This document shows positions 1 to 18,696 of a stretch of DNA of 18,696 nucleotides, in pieces. The translations under genes were made by a program, and so were the position numbers. How positions within the stretch are numbered: the first letter of the stretch is position 1; each line of letters opens with the position of its first letter. The notes beneath the pieces were generated by a model that was not told the DNA's origin, ran no database searches, and saw nothing but the letters and a program-made list of their open reading frames with translations. This DNA is from a virus, in IMG/VR virus record IMGVR_UViG_3300045988_180339, positions 1-18,696 of that record; one strand, written 5' to 3'.

Positions 1-5
1 TAGTA

Positions 6-37
6 AACAATATCCAACTTATTTCCCCCAAATAATA
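6..37 (+). repeat. ITR-internal ~30-bp direct repeat copy 1 (AAcAATATCCAACTTaTTTCcCCCcAAAtAATA)
   Basis: Imperfect direct repeat of 129-158 inside the same ITR (core AATATCCAACTT identical). Possible iteron or origin-protein binding site. Confidence 0.6.
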
Positions 38-128
38 ATACCCACAGTATGACCCCACAAAAACACAACCCACTTTCTTTAACCCACATAAGCACAACAC
101 AAACTAACCACAACAAACTGCACCACAA

Positions 129-158
129 AATAATATCCAACTTTTTCGCCCAAAATAC
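129..158 (+). repeat. ITR-internal direct repeat copy 2 (AAtAATATCCAACTTtTTTCgCCCAAAAtA), abutting the -35 element
   Basis: Matches 6-37 with few mismatches. Ends 1 nt before the -35 hexamer of the ITR promoter, so it could double as an operator. Confidence 0.6.
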
Positions 159-187
159 TAGACATCACTTTACACACCTGATATAGT
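159..187 (+). promoter_or_regulatory. Inward-facing sigma70-like promoter inside left ITR: -35 TAGACA (159-164), 17-nt spacer, extended -10 TGaTATAGT (179-187)
   Basis: Near-consensus hexamers with exact 17-nt spacing and a TGn extended -10. Followed about 60 nt later by SD GGAAGGAG (241-248) and ATG 255-257, the last 3 nt of the ITR. Confidence 0.55.
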
Positions 188-254
188 GGTCACTGTCAGC
201 AAGGCAAGGCACCCGGCGATGGGCTTGGGTGCGCTGTTTGGAAGGAGCAGGATT

Positions 255-320
255 ATGGAAATCAAAGAAGCTGTTATCAAAAGCGCGTTGTATCCGTTTG
301 CACTTCAAGTGCTGGGGTAG
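255..320 (+). CDS. 21-aa leader ORF (MEIKEAVIKSALYPFALQVLG) initiated by the ITR-borne SD+ATG
   Basis: Best SD in the region (GGAAGGAG, 6-nt spacer) sits before ATG 255 and stops at TAG 318-320. Immediately followed by a second SD GAGGAGGA (322-329) plus ATG 336 (7-aa ORF). Could be a leader peptide, or the N-terminus of a frameshifted gene. Confidence 0.3.
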   Translation: MEIKEAVIKSALYPFALQVLG

Positions 321-1288: not shown

Positions 1289-1516
1289 ATGATTCGCCGT
1301 AAAATGACCACCACTATTTGCGATGTGGTAACGCCTGATGGGGAGATGCTCGGCGAGGCGTCCTATTACGGCAAAATCAGCCCTGCAAGGCTCGCCAAGG
1401 TGGCGCGTCGGCTGTACAAGAACCAGCTCGCCACTATCACGAACTACCGAACTGTGCAGGAAACTTACGAGATGGAAGAGGAAGCTTTCATCGCAAACGC
1501 AACCAAAGTAGACTAA
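1289..1516 (+). CDS. Hypothetical early protein, 75 aa (basic N-terminus MIRRKM)
   Basis: Strong SD AAGGAGGTGA 7 nt before ATG 1289. Confidence 0.7.
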   Translation: MIRRKMTTTICDVVTPDGEMLGEASYYGKISPARLAKVARRLYKNQLATITNYRTVQETYEMEEEAFIANATKVD

Positions 1517-1531
1517 GAGAAGGAGCAAACA

Positions 1532-2005
1532 ATGACCGCAGAGTTCTATGAAGAGGAACAGGCCATCGCAACCCAGCAGGCTGCAGCCCAGCTTGCCAAC
1601 GGAAACGGCTTCGCGCAGAAGATCGTGCAGGAAGTGAACGAGCAGGGCTTCTACACCACGCTCGACATCTCCACCATGGCAGGAAAGAAGACGCTCTACA
1701 GCGCGACCAACGCGAGCGTGCTTCTCCGCGATTTCATGGAGACTCCGCTTGCGATTGCGAACATCACGTTCGCCCCGTCGGAAATCAGCGACGAGGACGG
1801 CAACCCGCTCACCACGCTCGGTGTCTTCCTCACCGACGAGAACGGCACCACATACAGCTCAACCTCCACGGGCGTTCTCAAGTCGGCTATGCGCATCCTC
1901 GCCAACTTCGGCGAGCCTACCGATTGGGGCGAGCCGCTCACCGTCGTGTGCAAGGAGACCAACACCAGCAAGGGTCGCCGCTACAAGTTCCTCGACGTGG
2001 AGTAG
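1532..2005 (+). CDS. Acidic 157-aa early protein; candidate SSB or DNA-binding replication accessory protein (by position only)
   Basis: SD GAGAAGGAG before ATG 1532. Sits directly upstream of the terminal protein/DNA polymerase gene pair. Followed by a GC-rich hairpin cluster. No motif recognised. Confidence 0.7.
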   Translation: MTAEFYEEEQAIATQQAAAQLANGNGFAQKIVQEVNEQGFYTTLDISTMAGKKTLYSATNASVLLRDFMETPLAIANITFAPSEISDEDGNPLTTLGVFLTDENGTTYSSTSTGVLKSAMRILANFGEPTDWGEPLTVVCKETNTSKGRRYKFLDVE

Positions 2006-2138: not shown

Positions 2139-3353
2139 ATGGCGAGGAAGAGAACGGAACTCGATAAGAAGATATCCCGCGCTCAGAAGAATGCCCGAAA
2201 CAAACTATACCGCATCCGTAAAAAGGGCGCAATCAACAGCGAGGAGTTCGACCCTCGCGTCTCCCAGGCAGAGATTAAGCATATGAACGGCTCGCAGAAG
2301 AAGGCATATCTCAGGAAGCTTGAACTGTTCAATGGCCGTGCGAACAAGGTTATCGTGCAGCCTGGAAACGGGATAGCGATTCCCGAGACCAAGCTCAAGG
2401 CGTACAGGCAGGCGGAGCTAGAGCTAAACGCCGCACGCATCATCCGAAGGGCTGGAATAGAGGAGGCGGTGAAGTCGGCGGCGGTTCTCGACATCTCCAG
2501 GATTCAGAAGACGGTGAACAAGGAGATAGCCAGGCGCGAGCGGGCGGAGAAGCTAGGCAAGCCGTACAAGCCGCTCAAGAAGTCGGTTGAGTCTATGCGC
2601 GGCATGCCCGTGAACTGGAACAAGCTTGACATCGACTACCTGGCTAAAGCTCAGAGCTACTACGACCCCGTGTTCAAGCAGTGGAAGCCGGGGGAGCGGA
2701 ACAAGTTCCAAGACCTCGTGCCAATCTGGATGCGCGAGTCCTTCCCCTCCGTGAAGTCGGTAGAGGAGCAGACCAGGAAGGCGAAGGAGGCAAAGGAGCG
2801 AATAAAGGTCGCCAGGAAGCGCTACCCGCAGTACCGAGAGGCGCTCATCGAGAAGGCCATGTTCTCGGGTTACCCCGAGCTTGCCGAGGCGATACGCGCG
2901 CTCACCTACGCGCAGCTCGATTACCTGCACTACTACACGGATTTCGACGCTTGGGGATCGTTCTTCTCGTCGTCGAAGGGCTATATCGCGGGAAATCAGG
3001 CGCTGTTCGAGGAGCAGCGCGACCAGACGGACGATGCTGCCGCGCAGATGATGGCGGAGATTCTGCGGGCGAGGCGCATAAGGCCCGGGCAGTCTGGAAT
3101 ATCGAACATCACTTACAACAAGGAATGGCGCGGCGAGAGGGGCTTTGCGAAGGCGGGCGGAAATCTCGGAAGCACCGGACTGGACCCCGATATCGTCGAT
3201 ACGATGAGCAGGGCGTCCATATCAGGCTCGCGACTCGGGTTCAGGACGTCCATCTTCGACTACAAGGAGAGCAAGGCGGAATCGGCAAACAGCGAGCGCA
3301 TGCTGCATGAGCTTTCCTACGAGATCGCGCGCCAGATAAGGCACGGGAAATGA
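2139..3353 (+). CDS. Putative terminal protein (TP, 404 aa), translationally coupled to the DNA polymerase
   Basis: SD AAAGGAG precedes ATG 2139 (the upstream ATG 2109 lacks an SD). Very basic N-terminus (MARKRTELDKKISRAQKNARNKLYRIRKKG). Stop overlaps the polymerase start (ATGA at 3350-3353). In phi29/Cp-1-like genomes the TP gene immediately precedes the polymerase. Confidence 0.55.
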   Translation: MARKRTELDKKISRAQKNARNKLYRIRKKGAINSEEFDPRVSQAEIKHMNGSQKKAYLRKLELFNGRANKVIVQPGNGIAIPETKLKAYRQAELELNAARIIRRAGIEEAVKSAAVLDISRIQKTVNKEIARRERAEKLGKPYKPLKKSVESMRGMPVNWNKLDIDYLAKAQSYYDPVFKQWKPGERNKFQDLVPIWMRESFPSVKSVEEQTRKAKEAKERIKVARKRYPQYREALIEKAMFSGYPELAEAIRALTYAQLDYLHYYTDFDAWGSFFSSSKGYIAGNQALFEEQRDQTDDAAAQMMAEILRARRIRPGQSGISNITYNKEWRGERGFAKAGGNLGSTGLDPDIVDTMSRASISGSRLGFRTSIFDYKESKAESANSERMLHELSYEIARQIRHGK

Positions 3354-5041
3354 TAGAGTACGCGAGCGACTTCGAGACCACGACGCAGGCCGATGACTGC
3401 CGCGTTTGGGCCTGGGGGTGCGCAAAAGCGTGCGGTGAGCCAGAACCGACGTTCGAGAGCGGTACCGATATCGATTCGTGGCTTGCGCACGTCAAGTCGA
3501 ACCCAGGCCGATACTGGTTCCACAACCTGGGATTCGACTCCCGCTTCGTCATGTGGCACCTGCTCAACTCAGGGTGCGAATGGGTGGAGAAGAAGCCGGT
3601 GGAAGGCCAGTTCTCAACCGTCATAGACAACATGGGAAAGATATACTCGCTAGAGATAGGCAACGAGGGCGGGAAGCTTGTTCTGGCTGACAGCTTCAAG
3701 AAGATTCCGATGAGCCTCGAGAGCGTCGCCCAGGCGTACGACCTGCCCATGTCGAAGGGCGATTTGGACTACGAGGCCTACCGAGAGGTCGGGCACGTGC
3801 TGACGGACGAGGAGATGGACTACCTGTACCGCGACGTGCTGATACTCGCAAGGGCGATGCACAAGCGACTCGAAGTCGGAACAAAGCTCACCACGGGCGC
3901 AGATTGCCTTGAAACCTACAAGGACATCATAGGCAAGGACCTATGGAACAAGTGGTTCCCCCACCTCAACCCGATACTCGACGGCGAGATTCGCCAGGCA
4001 TACCGAGGCGGATACGTGTACTGCAACCCGCTGCACCAGGGGCAGGTCGTAGGAAAGGGGATAGCGCTGGACGTCAACTCTCTTTACCCGTGGGTCATGA
4101 GAACGGCGCTGCTCCCCTGGGGCATGCCGAAGCGAGGGCGCGGCAAGCCGAAGGAGAGCAAGGATTTCCCGCTTTGGGTCGCGGAGGTGCAGTTCGACGC
4201 GACGTTGAAACCCGGGAAACTTCCCTGCATACAGATGAAGAACAACATGTTCTACCGCGATAGGGAGTACATACGCGAGACGGTAGAGCCTATAGACCTC
4301 TGGGTATCGTCGGTAGACTGGAAGCTCATATGCGACATGTACGAGGTCACCGTGTACGCGTGGGGAGCGCATTACCTGTTCCACGGTGCCAAGGGCATGT
4401 ACAACGATTACGTGGATTATTGGATGGCAGAGAAGATCGCGGCGGGCAAGGAGGGAAACCGCGCGAGGCGGCAGAACTCCAAGCTGTGCCTCAACAACCT
4501 GTACGGCAAGTTCGGTCAGAAGGTGGAGGTGCAGGGCAAGGTTCCCGTGCTCGATGCCGACAAGGTTCTCCACCTGCTGCCAGGCGACAAGGGAGAGCGC
4601 GATCCCGTGTACATCCCAAGCGCGGTGTTCATCACCGCATGGGCGAGGGACAAGACGATACGCACCGCCTGCGAGTTCGGGGACAGGTACCTTTACAGCG
4701 ACACCGACTCCATCAAGGCGCTGGGAACGGACATTCCAGACGATGTGCACGTGGACGATTACGAGCTTGGCGCATGGGCGTTGGAGCAGACGTTCGACAA
4801 GGGCATCTTCCTGCGGGCGAAGACCTACGCCACCTACTCCGACGGGCTTTGCGAGTACATATGCGCGGGAATGCCGAACAGCCTCAAGGAGGTCATGCGC
4901 TTCGATGACTTCAGGGTGGGATTCACCACGCTCGGCAGCGACAACCCCGATTACGCGAACAAGGACAACTGGAAGCTCGTGCCGCAGAACGTGCCCGGCG
5001 GTTGCGTGCTGGTGCCAAGGCCGTTTACAATACACGGATAG
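3350..5041 (+). CDS. Protein-primed family-B DNA polymerase (phi29 gp2-like, 563 aa)
   Basis: Exo I DFETT (aa 7-11), Exo II YWFHNLGFD (56-63), Exo III YLYRDV (158-163), YxGG AYRGGY, motif A DVNSLYP (241-247, identical to phi29), motif B KLCLNNLYGKFG (378-389), motif C YSDTDS (449-454), KxY KTYA (491-494). Size close to phi29 gp2. Confidence 0.95.
   Translation: MIEYASDFETTTQADDCRVWAWGCAKACGEPEPTFESGTDIDSWLAHVKSNPGRYWFHNLGFDSRFVMWHLLNSGCEWVEKKPVEGQFSTVIDNMGKIYSLEIGNEGGKLVLADSFKKIPMSLESVAQAYDLPMSKGDLDYEAYREVGHVLTDEEMDYLYRDVLILARAMHKRLEVGTKLTTGADCLETYKDIIGKDLWNKWFPHLNPILDGEIRQAYRGGYVYCNPLHQGQVVGKGIALDVNSLYPWVMRTALLPWGMPKRGRGKPKESKDFPLWVAEVQFDATLKPGKLPCIQMKNNMFYRDREYIRETVEPIDLWVSSVDWKLICDMYEVTVYAWGAHYLFHGAKGMYNDYVDYWMAEKIAAGKEGNRARRQNSKLCLNNLYGKFGQKVEVQGKVPVLDADKVLHLLPGDKGERDPVYIPSAVFITAWARDKTIRTACEFGDRYLYSDTDSIKALGTDIPDDVHVDDYELGAWALEQTFDKGIFLRAKTYATYSDGLCEYICAGMPNSLKEVMRFDDFRVGFTTLGSDNPDYANKDNWKLVPQNVPGGCVLVPRPFTIHG
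5002..5031 (+). promoter_or_regulatory. Candidate internal promoter for the lysis cassette: TTGCGT-18 nt-TACAAT inside the 3' end of the polymerase gene
   Basis: Hexamers 4/6 and 5/6 to consensus, about 12 nt upstream of SD GGGAAGGGAGGTGA and the holin ATG 5059. Confidence 0.25.
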
Positions 5042-6439: not shown

Positions 6440-6810
6440 GCTCGCCGTTCCGCGCCACGCGGACACGAGGTGCTCATCGCCGCACTTGCAAACGGAAACC
6501 TCTATGTCGCACTCCGCTCCCCGCCTGTCCGAATCGGCCTTCACAGCGACTGCCCAGGCGCGGTTCCCGAAACCGCCCTCTAAAATTACGCGCTCCATGT
6601 TCTGCTCCTTTCATTTCCACCGAAATTATGCCACAATGTAAGCGCTGGAGAAGTCCCGTTTCTCTGCCAGTAGCGTAATTCGGGACAGCGGGCCTTGCGG
6701 CCACCGAGGCGCGGTTTCAGGCTGGGGACTTTGAGCAGACTGCGGGTGACTTCCGAGCAACAAAAGACCTGAAACGGGAAGTCTCGCGACTGAACCGTTT
6801 CAGGTCGATT
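6440..6810 (+). ncRNA. Non-coding region with stable hairpins; candidate packaging RNA (pRNA) and/or late-operon leader
   Basis: No ORF with an SD on either strand across about 370 nt in an otherwise gene-dense genome. Contains the 12-bp hairpin 6766-6806 and the repeated GTTTCAGG motif. A gp16-like ATPase and gp10-like connector are present, and phi29-like motors use a pRNA. Assignment is inferential. Confidence 0.3.
6766..6806 (+). promoter_or_regulatory. Perfect 12-bp hairpin GACCTGAAACGG / CCGTTTCAGGTC (17-nt loop) immediately upstream of the scaffold gene SD
   Basis: Seen directly. GTTTCAGG also occurs at 6714-6721 and can pair with the same CCTGAAAC arm (6769-6776), giving mutually exclusive structures. 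Confidence 0.5.
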
Positions 6811-8597: not shown

Positions 8598-10772
8598 ATG
8601 GGAAACCTGCTGAAAAGACTTCGCGGCGAGAACCCCGAGAACCTCAACGAGGACTCGGGGTTCACCCCTTATTCGTGGCCCACCGACTCGAAGGCCACGC
8701 TTTGCCGCGTGCCCTGGGACGCCGAATACCGCAACGTGGTGGACTGGCAAGACCAGCAGCACAAGGACAGCTACTTCTCATCGCTTGAATCAGATTCGTG
8801 CGAGCTCGGGTCGATGACGTACCTAAAGCCGAACGACCCGATCTTCGTGGACGTGCCGTTCTCGAAGGCGTACAGCTACAACTACATCGTCGTGGAGAAC
8901 CCCAAGCTCCCCGTTCCGGGAGAGGTGGAGCCGCGCAAGCTCTACTACTTCGTGACGGCGGTAGGCTACGTCGCGCCGAACACCACCTCGATAGCGGTGC
9001 AGCTCGACGTGTGGACGACTTACGGCGACACCGCCGAGTTCGGGCGCTGCTTCGTGGAGCGAGGGCACGTGGGAATAGCGGCCGAGATGAGCAAGCCGAC
9101 GCCTACGGCGGATAAACTGGGACCAGCTCGTTCGAAGGTGTACCGACGCTACCTCACGGCTGCCGAGGGTTTGGACATCGGCAACGAGTACCTGATCGGG
9201 GACGTTGACGCTTTCAGCATCGCCGACTACGACCATGGGTGGGCGGTGGTCATCATGAGCACCACCGACCTTTTGGCCGATTGGGGCACTCTCAGCAACC
9301 CGTCCATGACAACTGCGGACGGCCAGGTTACGGACGGCCTGATAGGCGGGTGCAACGTCTACTCGCTGTCGACCGCCGATTTCAGGCAGTTCATGAAGAA
9401 CATCCGCAACTATCCCTGGGTTGCGAAGGGAATCATCAGCGTAACGGCGTTTCCGAAGGCGCTTCTAACGGACGGGCCCTCTGTGGACAAGGACGGCGTC
9501 ACCCTGTACTTCCTGGGGACGACGCCCGACAAGGGCTTCTACCGTGAAATCGACGATGTTTGGGAGCGATTATCGAAGTCGATTCCAGATCGTTACCGCA
9601 ACCTGCACAAGCTGCTGTGCTATCCGTACTCGGTCATCGAGCTGAACACCTACAACGGAAGCCCTGTGCTTCTGAAACCCGAGCTGCTCAACACCGACAC
9701 GCTCAGGCTCAGGAACATCTCGTGCGCCGTGCCGGGGCACATCAAAATCGGGTTCTACCCCTGGGCATACGACAGCGAGCGCCTCGTGCTGAACGAGTAC
9801 GGCCTGCCCGTGGTGTCGGCTACGATGGACGACCCGACGGTGAACCTGCCTGTTTCGGGTAACTCGCTCGACTCGTGCGTTTGGATGCAGGAAATGCCGA
9901 AGTTCTCGCTTGTGAACGACAACTACCTCAACTACCTCGCTTCCACCACGCATACCCGCGAATGGCAGTACAACTCGGCCGGATGGCAGCAGGCGAAGTC
10001 GAACGCGAGCGCCCACCTGTCGTATGACCAGGCGCAGCAGCAGATAGCGACGAACCGCGCCAACTGGAACGCATCGACGCGGGGCTTGCTGGGCAACGTG
10101 GCGGGCAACATCGGGAACCTTGCGATGAGCGGTGCGGACGCCCTCGGCATAGGCGGCGCGGTAAGCGGTGCGGCCGACTTCGCGAACGGCGTGCTGGGAA
10201 CGGTATCGGGCGCTATCGGTGCTACGGGCTGGGACAACATGCAGGGCATCGTGAACAACCTCACGGGCCTTACCGAGCTGAACAACAACCAGGCCCTGCA
10301 GGGCAACATCGCCTCGCAGAACCTCGACCTGGCCCAGTGGGCGGCGCAGGGAGACTACGAGAACGCGATCGCCAAGATAAACGCGACCGTGCAGGACGCG
10401 GCGCTCACAGCTCCATCGGTCATCGGCCAAGCAGGCGGCAGCGGGTTCTCGATGTCGAACGGCCTCTTCGTCGTGCAGACTAGGTTCAAGACCATCGACC
10501 AGAACCACATGCACATCATCGGCGAGTATTGGCTAAGGTACGGCTACGCGGTGCGCGAGTTCATGGTGCCGCCAGCCGACCTCTGTTGCATGGAGCACTT
10601 CACCTACTGGAAGATGCTGGAGACGAGCGTGGAGTGCGCGCTCGCCGACGAGACGTCTAAGGAGACCATCAGGGGAATATTCGAGAAGGGCGTCACCGTG
10701 TGGAGGAGCGCCGACGAGATAACCACGTGGGACTTATCGGACAACGACCCGATTTTGGGCGATTACTACTAA
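8598..10772 (+). CDS. Tail knob / distal tube protein (phi29 gp9-like, 724 aa) with a Gly-rich hydrophobic loop
   Basis: Position between the capsid and connector genes, as for phi29 gene 9. Gly-rich segment GLLGNVAGNIGNLAMSGADALGIGGAVSGAADFANGVLGTVSGAIGATG (nt about 10080-10230), like the membrane-active loop of gp9. C-terminal GVTVWRSADEITTW resembles the gp9 end. Confidence 0.6.
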   Translation: MGNLLKRLRGENPENLNEDSGFTPYSWPTDSKATLCRVPWDAEYRNVVDWQDQQHKDSYFSSLESDSCELGSMTYLKPNDPIFVDVPFSKAYSYNYIVVENPKLPVPGEVEPRKLYYFVTAVGYVAPNTTSIAVQLDVWTTYGDTAEFGRCFVERGHVGIAAEMSKPTPTADKLGPARSKVYRRYLTAAEGLDIGNEYLIGDVDAFSIADYDHGWAVVIMSTTDLLADWGTLSNPSMTTADGQVTDGLIGGCNVYSLSTADFRQFMKNIRNYPWVAKGIISVTAFPKALLTDGPSVDKDGVTLYFLGTTPDKGFYREIDDVWERLSKSIPDRYRNLHKLLCYPYSVIELNTYNGSPVLLKPELLNTDTLRLRNISCAVPGHIKIGFYPWAYDSERLVLNEYGLPVVSATMDDPTVNLPVSGNSLDSCVWMQEMPKFSLVNDNYLNYLASTTHTREWQYNSAGWQQAKSNASAHLSYDQAQQQIATNRANWNASTRGLLGNVAGNIGNLAMSGADALGIGGAVSGAADFANGVLGTVSGAIGATGWDNMQGIVNNLTGLTELNNNQALQGNIASQNLDLAQWAAQGDYENAIAKINATVQDAALTAPSVIGQAGGSGFSMSNGLFVVQTRFKTIDQNHMHIIGEYWLRYGYAVREFMVPPADLCCMEHFTYWKMLETSVECALADETSKETIRGIFEKGVTVWRSADEITTWDLSDNDPILGDYY

Positions 10773-18187: not shown

Positions 18188-18442
18188 TTAGTCCTCCCAT
18201 TTGATCGCGTTTGCCTGGTCAAGGATAAAAAAGCAATCCATGAAGCTTTCAAGCTGATAAACGCACTCGCGAGGAGAACCGCACGCTAAAACCTTCAAGG
18301 GAACCCACTGCCCACGCTCGAAGCGCTCAAGGTATACGTTATGGCCGATTCCTCCGCGATCATGAACGCGAACATTAAACTGCTTCATATAGTCATTAAC
18401 GTAGTCGATTTTTCCTTCCAAAGTTTTGACGGTGTAACGCAT
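18188..18442 (-). CDS. First right-end early protein, 84 aa, start codon is the last triplet of the ITR
   Basis: SD GGAAGGAG (inside the ITR) with a 6-nt spacer before ATG at 18442-18440, then unique sequence (MRYTVKTLEGKIDYVNDYMKQF...). The track ORF start at 18511 lies in the ITR and is rejected. Confidence 0.65.
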   Translation of the reverse strand: MRYTVKTLEGKIDYVNDYMKQFNVRVHDRGGIGHNVYLERFERGQWVPLKVLACGSPRECVYQLESFMDCFFILDQANAIKWED

Positions 18443-18696
18443 AATCCTGCTCCTTCCAAACAGCGCACCCAAGCCCATCGCCGGGTGCCTTGCCTTGCTG
18501 ACAGTGACCACTATATCAGGTGTGTAAAGTGATGTCTAGTATTTTGGGCGAAAAAGTTGGATATTATTTTGTGGTGCAGTTTGTTGTGGTTAGTTTGTGT
18601 TGTGCTTATGTGGGTTAAAGAAAGTGGGTTGTGTTTTTGTGGGGTCATACTGTGGGTATTATTATTTGGGGGAAATAAGTTGGATATTGTTTACTA
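18440..18696. repeat. Right inverted terminal repeat (ITR), 257 bp
   Basis: Reverse complement of 1-257. The window therefore spans a whole linear genome of phi29/Cp-1 type (Cp-1 is known to have a long ITR of more than 200 bp). Confidence 0.95.
18510..18538 (-). promoter_or_regulatory. Mirror copy of the ITR promoter driving the leftward early operon from the right end
   Basis: Same sequence on the minus strand (-35 at 18533-18538, -10 at 18510-18515). The SD and ATG at 18442-18440 also lie in the ITR. Confidence 0.55.

Follow-up and report, generated by a model that had tools for sequence, protein, structure and literature searches.

In phage phi29, the protein p6 binds as dimers spaced 24 bp apart, so that each monomer takes up 12 bp, and in phage GA-1 p6 binds every 11 bp (PMC4974454, PMC10899789). 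The phi29 protein prefers the genome ends and wraps the DNA in a right-handed superhelix, and the resulting complex acts as an activator of protein-primed initiation and as a repressor of C2, the early promoter close to the end (PMC4974454, PMC10899789). The right end of phi29 accommodates, in order, the terminus, a p6 recognition region (nt 62-125), C2 and gene 17. DNA recognition by p6 has remained vague for decades, described as a 'bendability pattern' without a sequence signature, and p6 homologs are found only in Salasmaviridae and some Enterococcus faecium strains according to a 2024 review (PMC11476376). Here we describe the genome ends of the IMG/VR virus record IMGVR_UViG_3300045988_180339, analysed over its whole length of 18,696 bp (hereafter the window). 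This is a near-complete genome of a human-gut phi29-like podophage, linear, of 58% G+C, whose ends form a perfect 257-bp inverted terminal repeat (ITR). Each ITR arm carries an array of 13.5-bp units, almost free of G on the 5'-ended strand, between the terminus and an inward early promoter, and the same genome encodes a homolog of phi29 p6. We lean towards the view that this homolog assembles on the array.

The resemblance to phi29 covers both the ends and the gene content. In the phi29 right end, as in the window, the terminus is followed by a C-run box (ATTTCCCCATT at 29-39 in phi29, TTATTTCCCCCAAAT at 20-34 in the window), a stretch of 120-155 bp and an inward early promoter with a TAGACA -35 box (C2 in phi29), and both genomes encode p6, a p5-like single-stranded DNA-binding protein (SSB), a protein-primed DNA polymerase (DNAP) and a terminal protein (TP; putative in the window). 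The phi29 ITR measures 6 bp, however, whereas the window duplicates this arrangement as a 257-bp ITR at both ends, and transcription of the replication genes of the window runs inward, away from the end, not toward it. Neither the 13.5-bp periodicity nor the near-total exclusion of G from one strand is seen at the ends of phi29. Finally, the p6 homolog of the window has 75 amino acids (aa) without an acidic tail, and its likely terminus is GTGTAG, not AAAGTA.

Two other kinds of origin bear comparison. Adenovirus ITRs hold a core origin and auxiliary NFI and Oct-1 sites that stimulate initiation, and their extreme end is A/T-rich with a G-poor 5' strand. The window shares with them such an extreme end and a long ITR (about 100-250 bp) on a protein-primed linear genome, but there is no homology, its auxiliary region consists of a periodic array where adenovirus has two discrete sites for host factors, and its ITR also bears a promoter, an untranslated region and a start codon. 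The iterons of plasmids and phages are likewise direct, same-orientation repeats beside an origin, overlapping a promoter that the bound protein could autoregulate, and in the window the p6 gene lies within the operon driven by the ITR promoter. Unlike iteron replicons, the window has no Rep-type initiator and no theta or rolling-circle origin, and its units are short (13.5 bp), degenerate and defined by composition more than by fixed sequence.

The terminal array and the early promoter

The 257 nt of the left end and the reverse complement of the right end agree at every base, and identity stops after the G of an ATG at 255-257. From the outside in, the left arm (1-257, plus strand) comprises a probably truncated terminus, the phased G-depleted array, the early promoter, a 5' untranslated region (5'UTR), a ribosome-binding site (RBS) and this start codon. 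The right arm (18440-18696) repeats the same elements reading inward on the minus strand, with the array at 18539-18696, the -35 box at 18533-18538, the -10 box at 18510-18515 and the ATG at 18440-18442. On each side the ITR therefore ends exactly at the ATG of the first gene, and each arm unites the origin region with the whole expression signal of the first gene of an inward early operon; the left operon contains the replication genes. An ITR is also found in the closest relative, L003. There, by comparison of ~235-262 with its own right end (contig L126), the repeat stops ~23 nt earlier, before the RBS. That the boundary shifts between such close relatives is consistent with ongoing end-to-end homogenisation.

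The array occupies nt 1-158 of the plus strand and consists of about 11 direct 13.5-bp units, each an A/T-rich block followed by CC or CCC(C), with a consensus of about AAtTaaCCCAAAaA. In spectral analysis of these 158 nt, C, or G+C as opposed to A+T, recurs with a sharply defined period of 13.5 nt (z ~12 relative to shuffles), and none of 500 dinucleotide shuffles reached the observed periodic power. The fitted G+C peaks fall near positions 1, 15, 28, 42, 55, 69, 82, 96, 109, 123, 136 and 150. Genome-wide, the two ITR arms are the strongest 158-nt windows for this period, which holds in the middle of the tract alone (38-127, P=0.008) and in each half, and becomes stronger when the promoter is included. 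When the phi29 ends were used as a periodicity control, no clear 12- or 24-nt signal was obtained, and the method is not calibratable on phi29.

The same organisation recurs in relatives of the window. L003, L185, L170 and L183 have a period of 13.4-13.6, and counted from the terminus their G+C peaks fall at +0, +13.5, +27 and so on, although the tract sequences themselves have diverged to a mean column identity of 65% across aligned ITR arms. The distances from terminus to promoter differ between lineages by -41, -12, +25 and +25 nt, all near multiples of 13.5. The array is thus phased from the terminus to the -35 box, and its period and phase are common to five lineages. In L170, nt 105-145 hold a ~29-nt G-containing insertion in the array (CGCTTGACATATACACGCGCTTGATATACGCGC), close to two units in length and without counterpart in the window, which looks like an extra promoter or operator.

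Three further candidates for periodic structure were set aside. A 27-28-nt 'dimer' unit, sought by base-identity autocorrelation, was marginal (z ~3) and inconsistent across lineages, and is not claimed. Internal 13.5-nt power at 2035-2150 is due to three GC-rich hairpins, and an internal signal at ~6535-6690 overlaps a conserved structured intergenic region; neither is A/C-rich. The hairpins lie one after another in the interval between the SSB and TP genes (2030-2125) and mimic the 13.5-nt periodicity in short windows. The last of them (2102-2119) was scanned as a minus-strand terminator-like site.

A preliminary description of this DNA, made from its letters alone, had noted two iterons of ~30 bp at the end. 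The pair is real and lies where it was placed, but the account was incomplete: the two copies, at 5-37 and 128-160 of the plus strand, are units 1-2 and 10-11 of the array, and the 123-nt offset between them equals nine periods. They are identical at 27 of 33 positions without gaps (~26 of 29 with one 1-nt gap) and share an exact 12-nt core, AATATCCAACTT; the pair score was reached by one of 2000 dinucleotide-preserving shuffles of nt 1-178 (P ~5e-4). Copy 2, which is A/T-rich, UP-element-like and abuts the -35 box, is kept in all five lineages at this place. L185 has lost the AATATCCAACTT core of copy 1, the terminal one, and in L003 the two copies have diverged independently. A search of IMG/VR with a 16-nt core pattern returned chance matches only. 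The most widely conserved terminal element is a different one, the TTTCCCCCAAA box (22-32, plus strand), which stands ~25 nt from the end in all lineages, including a distant clade with genomes of 15-16 kb.

The tract is also strongly depleted of G. Between nt 21 and 130 there are 50 A, 39 C, 17 T and 4 G (at 47, 51, 92 and 120), exactly the number of G that had first been estimated; the label 'A+C-only', however, overstated the case, as 17 T among 110 nt make the tract G-depleted rather than T-free. Seven G occur in the whole of nt 1-178, whereas the lowest internal 110-nt window of the genome has 13. The G+C content of the tract is 33-40%, compared with 58% genome-wide. The single strands had further been described as unstructured, and folding calculations agree: with DNA parameters the minimum free energy (MFE) of the 158-nt tract is -2.4 kcal/mol for the top strand and -3.2 for the bottom strand, against a mean of -25.5 +/- 6.5 for 228 internal 158-nt windows, the least stable of which reaches -4.5. 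Both strands of the tract are the least foldable 158-nt segments of the genome, and the tracts of the relatives agree with that of the window. Because all units have the same orientation, the 5'-ended strand is almost G-free and neither single strand is able to fold.

Between the window and L003 the tract carries 16 substitutions, of which one involves G and nine are A<->C transversions, and this G-avoiding spectrum argues for selection against G on the 5'-ended strand. Close variants within the L170 clade had too few variable sites for the same analysis. Deamination of a displaced strand is expected to make that strand G/T-rich, the opposite of what is observed, and a mutational strand bias was accordingly rejected as the cause of the depletion. 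The strand polarity of the tract is identical at both ends of the genome and in both clades described below.

Directly inward of the array lies a strong sigma70-type early promoter (159-187, plus strand) with a TAGACA -35 box, a 17-nt spacer and an extended -10 box, TGnTATAGT. It matches at 10 of 12 positions with the TG present, is conserved in relatives and is in phase with the array. Upstream of it, nt 135-156 (ATCCAACTTTTTCGCCCAAAAT) match an UP element partially, as judged by eye, in a block kept in all lineages. For comparison, the annotation of phage Av-1 gives inward promoters ~205 nt from each end.

The predicted 5'UTR (194-257, plus strand; start site inferred) is a G-rich leader with a hairpin at 209-232, in which GCACCC (209-214) pairs with GGGTGC (227-232) across a 12-nt loop, followed by an RBS (GAAGGAG, 241-247) and the ATG. 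Hairpins of distinct sequence occupy the same leader place in L185 (~196-217, GCGAGG..CCTCGC) and L183 (~165-184, GGGGGC..GCCCCC), and a conserved leader structure for early transcripts is suggested. As for the first gene, the open reading frame (ORF) that starts at the ITR ATG (255) ends after 21 codons at a TAG (318-320), and the rest continues in another frame to 696. A G-run at 314-317 has one extra G relative to the relatives, whose first gene spans ~145-150 aa; the extra-G sequence is also present in other assemblies of the same sample.

A p6 homolog and its genomic setting

The genome encodes a homolog of phi29 p6. The 75-aa protein, from a gene at 1289-1516 (plus strand), was assigned through homology, fold and position. 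It matched PHROG 6370, 'dsDNA binding protein' (E=4.7e-5), and aligned to phi29 p6 in hhalign over 72 columns with a probability of 91.3% (E=9.5e-7) when a 7-sequence profile was used and of 93.7% (E=1.9e-7) with a 19-sequence profile; conversely, a hidden Markov model (HMM) of the 75-aa family matches phi29 gene 6. The sequence of the p6 crystal structure ranked first in a PDB sequence search. An AlphaFold2 model of the protein (pLDDT 87.9) gave p6 (8pw4_A) as its sole significant PDB match in Foldseek (E=5.2e-5, TM 0.63). Of six p6 residues reported as invariant, three are kept, R6, G37 and F76 aligning with R4, G28 and F67. The gene sits just upstream of the one for the SSB, where phi29 has its gene 6, and the order p6 - p5 - TP - DNAP is that of phi29.

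The downstream genes identify the replication module. The SSB (1532-2005, plus strand) is of the phi29 p5 type (PF17427, phrog_6243). The DNAP (3350-5041, plus strand) is a protein-primed family-B enzyme (PF03175, DNA_pol_B_2, E=1.2e-59), residues 4-561 of which match residues 9-574 of phi29 DNAP (1xhx) over the full length (E=8.4e-104). Between the two lies the putative TP gene (2139-3353, plus strand), assigned by position and family only. Its product is an all-alpha protein of 404 aa with a basic N-terminus. The gene's stop codon and the start codon of the DNAP gene overlap, and the ORF family is kept in the same place in relatives; it gave no Pfam or PHROG match, no likeness to the Av-1 TP and, as a model, no fold match in the PDB.

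A capsid protein, connector and tail knob of the phi29 type are also encoded (PF25622, PF05352 and PF20934), as is a packaging ATPase of the gp16 type, with PF05894 recognised on ATPase homologs. Whole-genome megablast against GenBank phages gave no match, and the closest isolates, phages of Curtobacterium, Actinomyces, Glutamicibacter, Arthrobacter and Rhizobium, share only ~40% DNAP identity. The exact putative-TP sequence is present in human gut metagenome assemblies (ERR414285), and a scan of GTDB genomes for a host or prophage found none. An Rfam scan yielded no match to the packaging RNA (pRNA) at E<=1. The intergenic segment 6599-6827 (plus strand), upstream of a scaffold-like and the capsid gene, is almost invariant across six lineages. 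It holds a conserved extended -10-like element, TATGCCACAATG, and ~160 nt of predicted helices, with compensatory changes at three predicted base pairs; the segment, in particular ~6640-6800, may encode a structured RNA that serves as a pRNA equivalent or as the leader of a late operon.

Genomes of 15-16 kb form a second clade (41% ATPase identity, 31% terminal-protein identity) with a p6-like ORF upstream of the TP gene (E=2e-11 to 8e-10) together with a G-poor, C/A-rich tract between each terminus and an inward TAGACA promoter. The tracts of these genomes consist of tandem repeats that are close to perfect, with units of 24.75 nt (>11 copies), 39 nt and 45 nt. Such tandem-repeat ITRs fill the terminal 150-400 nt of L130/L211, L131/L208, L132/L214 and L136, from IMG/VR sample 3300045988, where a TAGACA-17-TATATT inward promoter follows the repeats and each has a p6-like ORF. 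The family HMM found no p6-like match in seven GenBank relatives (Av-1, RHph_N3_8, Reje, Trapezoid, Voltaire, Mendel and MT835826). Six complete genomes among these seven also lack the tract; MT835826, an unverified scaffold, has a G-poor right end. In Hungatella phage CH17P1, a cultured gut phage, an ORF at ~9946-10251 (L200), annotated as 'hypothetical' and the first gene of the early operon, is p6-like by HMM (E=1e-4). Proteins of the p6 family may be spread more widely in gut phi29-like phages than annotated.

The physical terminus

The window opens 5'-TAGTAAAC, and the TAGTA at nt 1-5 had been read in the preliminary description as the genome terminus, with TA-G-TA permitting initiation at an internal template position followed by jumping or sliding back. 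Relatives do not bear this out. Both ends of L003 (95% DNAP identity) begin TGTAGTAAAC, and a GTGTAG start is shared by L183 (the 78% lineage), by L170/L171 (the 84% lineage, two assemblies) and by L127, from a far more distant clade; the distant contig L134 starts ATGTAC at the homologous base. The L185 contig runs 5 nt past the homologous end base, 8 nt past the first base of the window, reading AATAAATGTAG. Relatives extend TAGTA by TG or GTG, and the assembly ends of the window are very probably incomplete.

Contigs of this virus from other assemblies are shorter than the window, breaking off at its positions 131, 228 and 321, which indicates that contig ends are assembly ends. Nor does the symmetry of the two contig ends prove anything about completeness, since an ITR collapses into a single assembly path. 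A search for right ends through ATPase homologs gave no new termini, all contigs being truncated inside the ITR. As judged from the aligned ends, TAGTA is very unlikely to be the physical end and very probably marks a truncation by assembly: it forms the inner part of a conserved terminal motif, RTGTAG(TA), of which ~3 terminal nt (GTG) have likely been lost. Because four lineages end at the same homologous base, the real end probably lies at the R of RTGTAG, three bases outside the window. The true terminus is most likely 5'-GTGTAGTAAAC, and the window most likely ~3 nt short at each end.

This bears on the mechanism of initiation. The window shares a linear protein-primed genome with an ITR with systems that slide or jump back (phi29 at 3'-TTT, PRD1 at 3'-CCCC, adenovirus at 3'-GTAGTA), and its probable end, 5'-GTGTAG, contains a GT-GT reiteration. 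In contrast to those systems, TA-G-TA is internal and not conserved here. TAGTA is present in the window, L003 and L183, but its second TA is absent from L170 (TAGGA) and L185 (TAGCG), and a 2-nt match of this kind is expected by chance in 1/16 of cases. If a reiteration is used at all, GT-GT in 5'-GTGTAG is the better candidate and would fit a 2-nt jump-back; it is found in three lineages, whereas the lineages with ATGTAC and ATGTAG do not fit. Similar starts occur in Av-1 (TGTGT...) and RHph_N3_8 (GTGTG...). A general caution follows, that terminal-sequence mechanisms are not to be read off metagenomic contig ends.

Proposed function of the array

We posit that the array is a platform on which a multimer of the p6 homolog encoded by the phage itself nucleates and acquires its phase, which would couple the opening of the origin with the shut-off of the early promoter. 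This is our preferred reading, held on balance and by analogy with phi29. At both ends, the array of ~155 bp would keep the p6 homolog in one register all the way from the tip to the promoter. As at the phi29 right end, the complex would then wrap and untwist the end, helping the TP/polymerase pair to start replication, and accumulating p6 would shut off the early promoters borne on the ITRs. The lack of structure in the single strands may be an added aid to strand-displacement replication. A p6-like origin-organising protein had been put forward in the preliminary description as one possible ligand of the terminal repeats, and this suggestion is supported in spirit, in that a p6 homolog is encoded and the tract is a phased array; a phased periodic tract is also as expected for a multimeric p6-type complex. 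The link between array and protein is drawn from analogy and co-occurrence only, and a 13.5-bp register of p6 binding, like its effects on replication and transcription, is put forward on the same footing.

Several observations weigh against this proposal. At 13.5 bp, the period does not coincide with the registers measured for p6, 12 bp in phi29 and 11 bp in GA-1. The ends of phi29 itself have no comparable sequence periodicity, which means that p6 binding does not require such an array. A protein that binds double-stranded DNA through the minor groove does not obviously explain why G should be excluded from one strand outside the C clusters. In the second clade the unit lengths (25, 39 and 45 nt) are not uniform, and CH17P1, whose record is a partial genome, combines a p6-like gene with G-rich ends. 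Lastly, the periodicity of the five lineages could in part be inherited from a tandem-repeat ancestor rather than selected.

Alternative explanations account for part of these data. The tract could be selected for its base composition rather than for protein phasing, such that neither the A/C-rich 5'-ended (displaced) strand nor the G/T-rich 3' template strand folds: the template's 3' end would stay open to TP and DNAP, SSB would coat the displaced strand, and the two ITRs might pair into a panhandle as in adenovirus. The near-zero folding energies of the tract relative to internal windows, the similar values in relatives, the low G+C content, the substitutions that avoid G and the identical strand polarity at both ends and in both clades all agree with a single-strand function. 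A need for composition, however, predicts neither a sharp 13.5-nt period nor a locked phase nor length steps of unit size. Av-1, Trapezoid, Voltaire and Mendel, also protein-primed, have ordinary or even G-rich 5' end strands, and G-depletion is therefore no general need of protein-primed replication. We consider selection on composition unlikely to be the explanation in place of p6 phasing, although the two are compatible and both may act together. A purely transcriptional role, in which the tract is an extended upstream activating region made of UP-like A/T blocks for the alpha subunits of RNA polymerase or of sites for a host or phage activator, and has no part in replication, is improbable. 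UP elements have a consensus of a distal T-run and a proximal A-run, and a T-run at ~-53 and an A-run at ~-42 resemble them; moreover, no block is better conserved across the five lineages than the repeat copy at 128-160, which abuts the -35 box, and the periodic signal runs in phase through the promoter. But an UP element is ~20 bp long whereas the tract has 155 bp, the terminus anchors the phase, and it is the outermost TTTCCCCCAAA box that is most widely conserved, even in the distant clade. With a spacing of 13.5 bp, moreover, each site faces a different side of the helix from the one before, an unusual arrangement for an array of activator sites.

Repeat turnover offers an account without function, the tract being a decaying tandem repeat produced by slippage or unequal exchange at the ends. 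Related clades with near-perfect arrays of differing unit length at the same place, and length steps of unit size, are typical of such turnover. Against this stand the persistence of period, phase, polarity and G-depletion in five lineages diverged to 65% column identity, the strong skew of substitutions against G and the co-occurrence of the trait with a p6-like gene in two clades, and we regard a neutral origin as very improbable. Least credible, if only slightly so, is the combination proposed in the preliminary description, with TAGTA as the physical end for jump-back and the ~30-bp repeats as specific sites for TP and polymerase. The repeat pair exceeds chance, TAGTA occurs in three lineages, and terminal reiterations are general in protein-primed systems (PMC4974454). 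Yet the end extends past TAGTA in every relative that reaches that far, the second TA is missing in two lineages, copy 1 has lost its AATATCCAACTT core in L185 while the copies of L003 have drifted apart, and the pair belongs to a longer array; besides, origin recognition in phi29 needs just the terminal bases and the parental TP (PMC4974454).

A more specific version of the p6 platform can be offered tentatively, with decidedly less confidence. The strand-polar array, made of ~11 units of 13.5 bp here and of the tandem units of ~25, 39 and 45 nt in the second clade, might set a filament of the minimal, tail-less p6 homolog in register with both the tip and the early promoter, as a 'telomere cap' coupling origin firing to early shut-off, and the exclusion of G might then reflect a second requirement at the level of the single strand that no known property of p6 explains. 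In eukaryotic telomeres the 3' strand is G/T-rich, and the exclusion of G from the 5'-ended strand of the window has the same polarity.

Beyond the phage itself, the array could be a source of stronger or more tunable origins for TP-primed in vitro amplification. Taken together, this analysis reveals a distant, uncultured gut lineage in which a compact p6 homolog occurs alongside an array that is overtly periodic and phase-locked. The combination provides a natural model substrate for p6, on which the recognition code, the register of binding and the way in which replication is coupled to promoter control can be tested directly.

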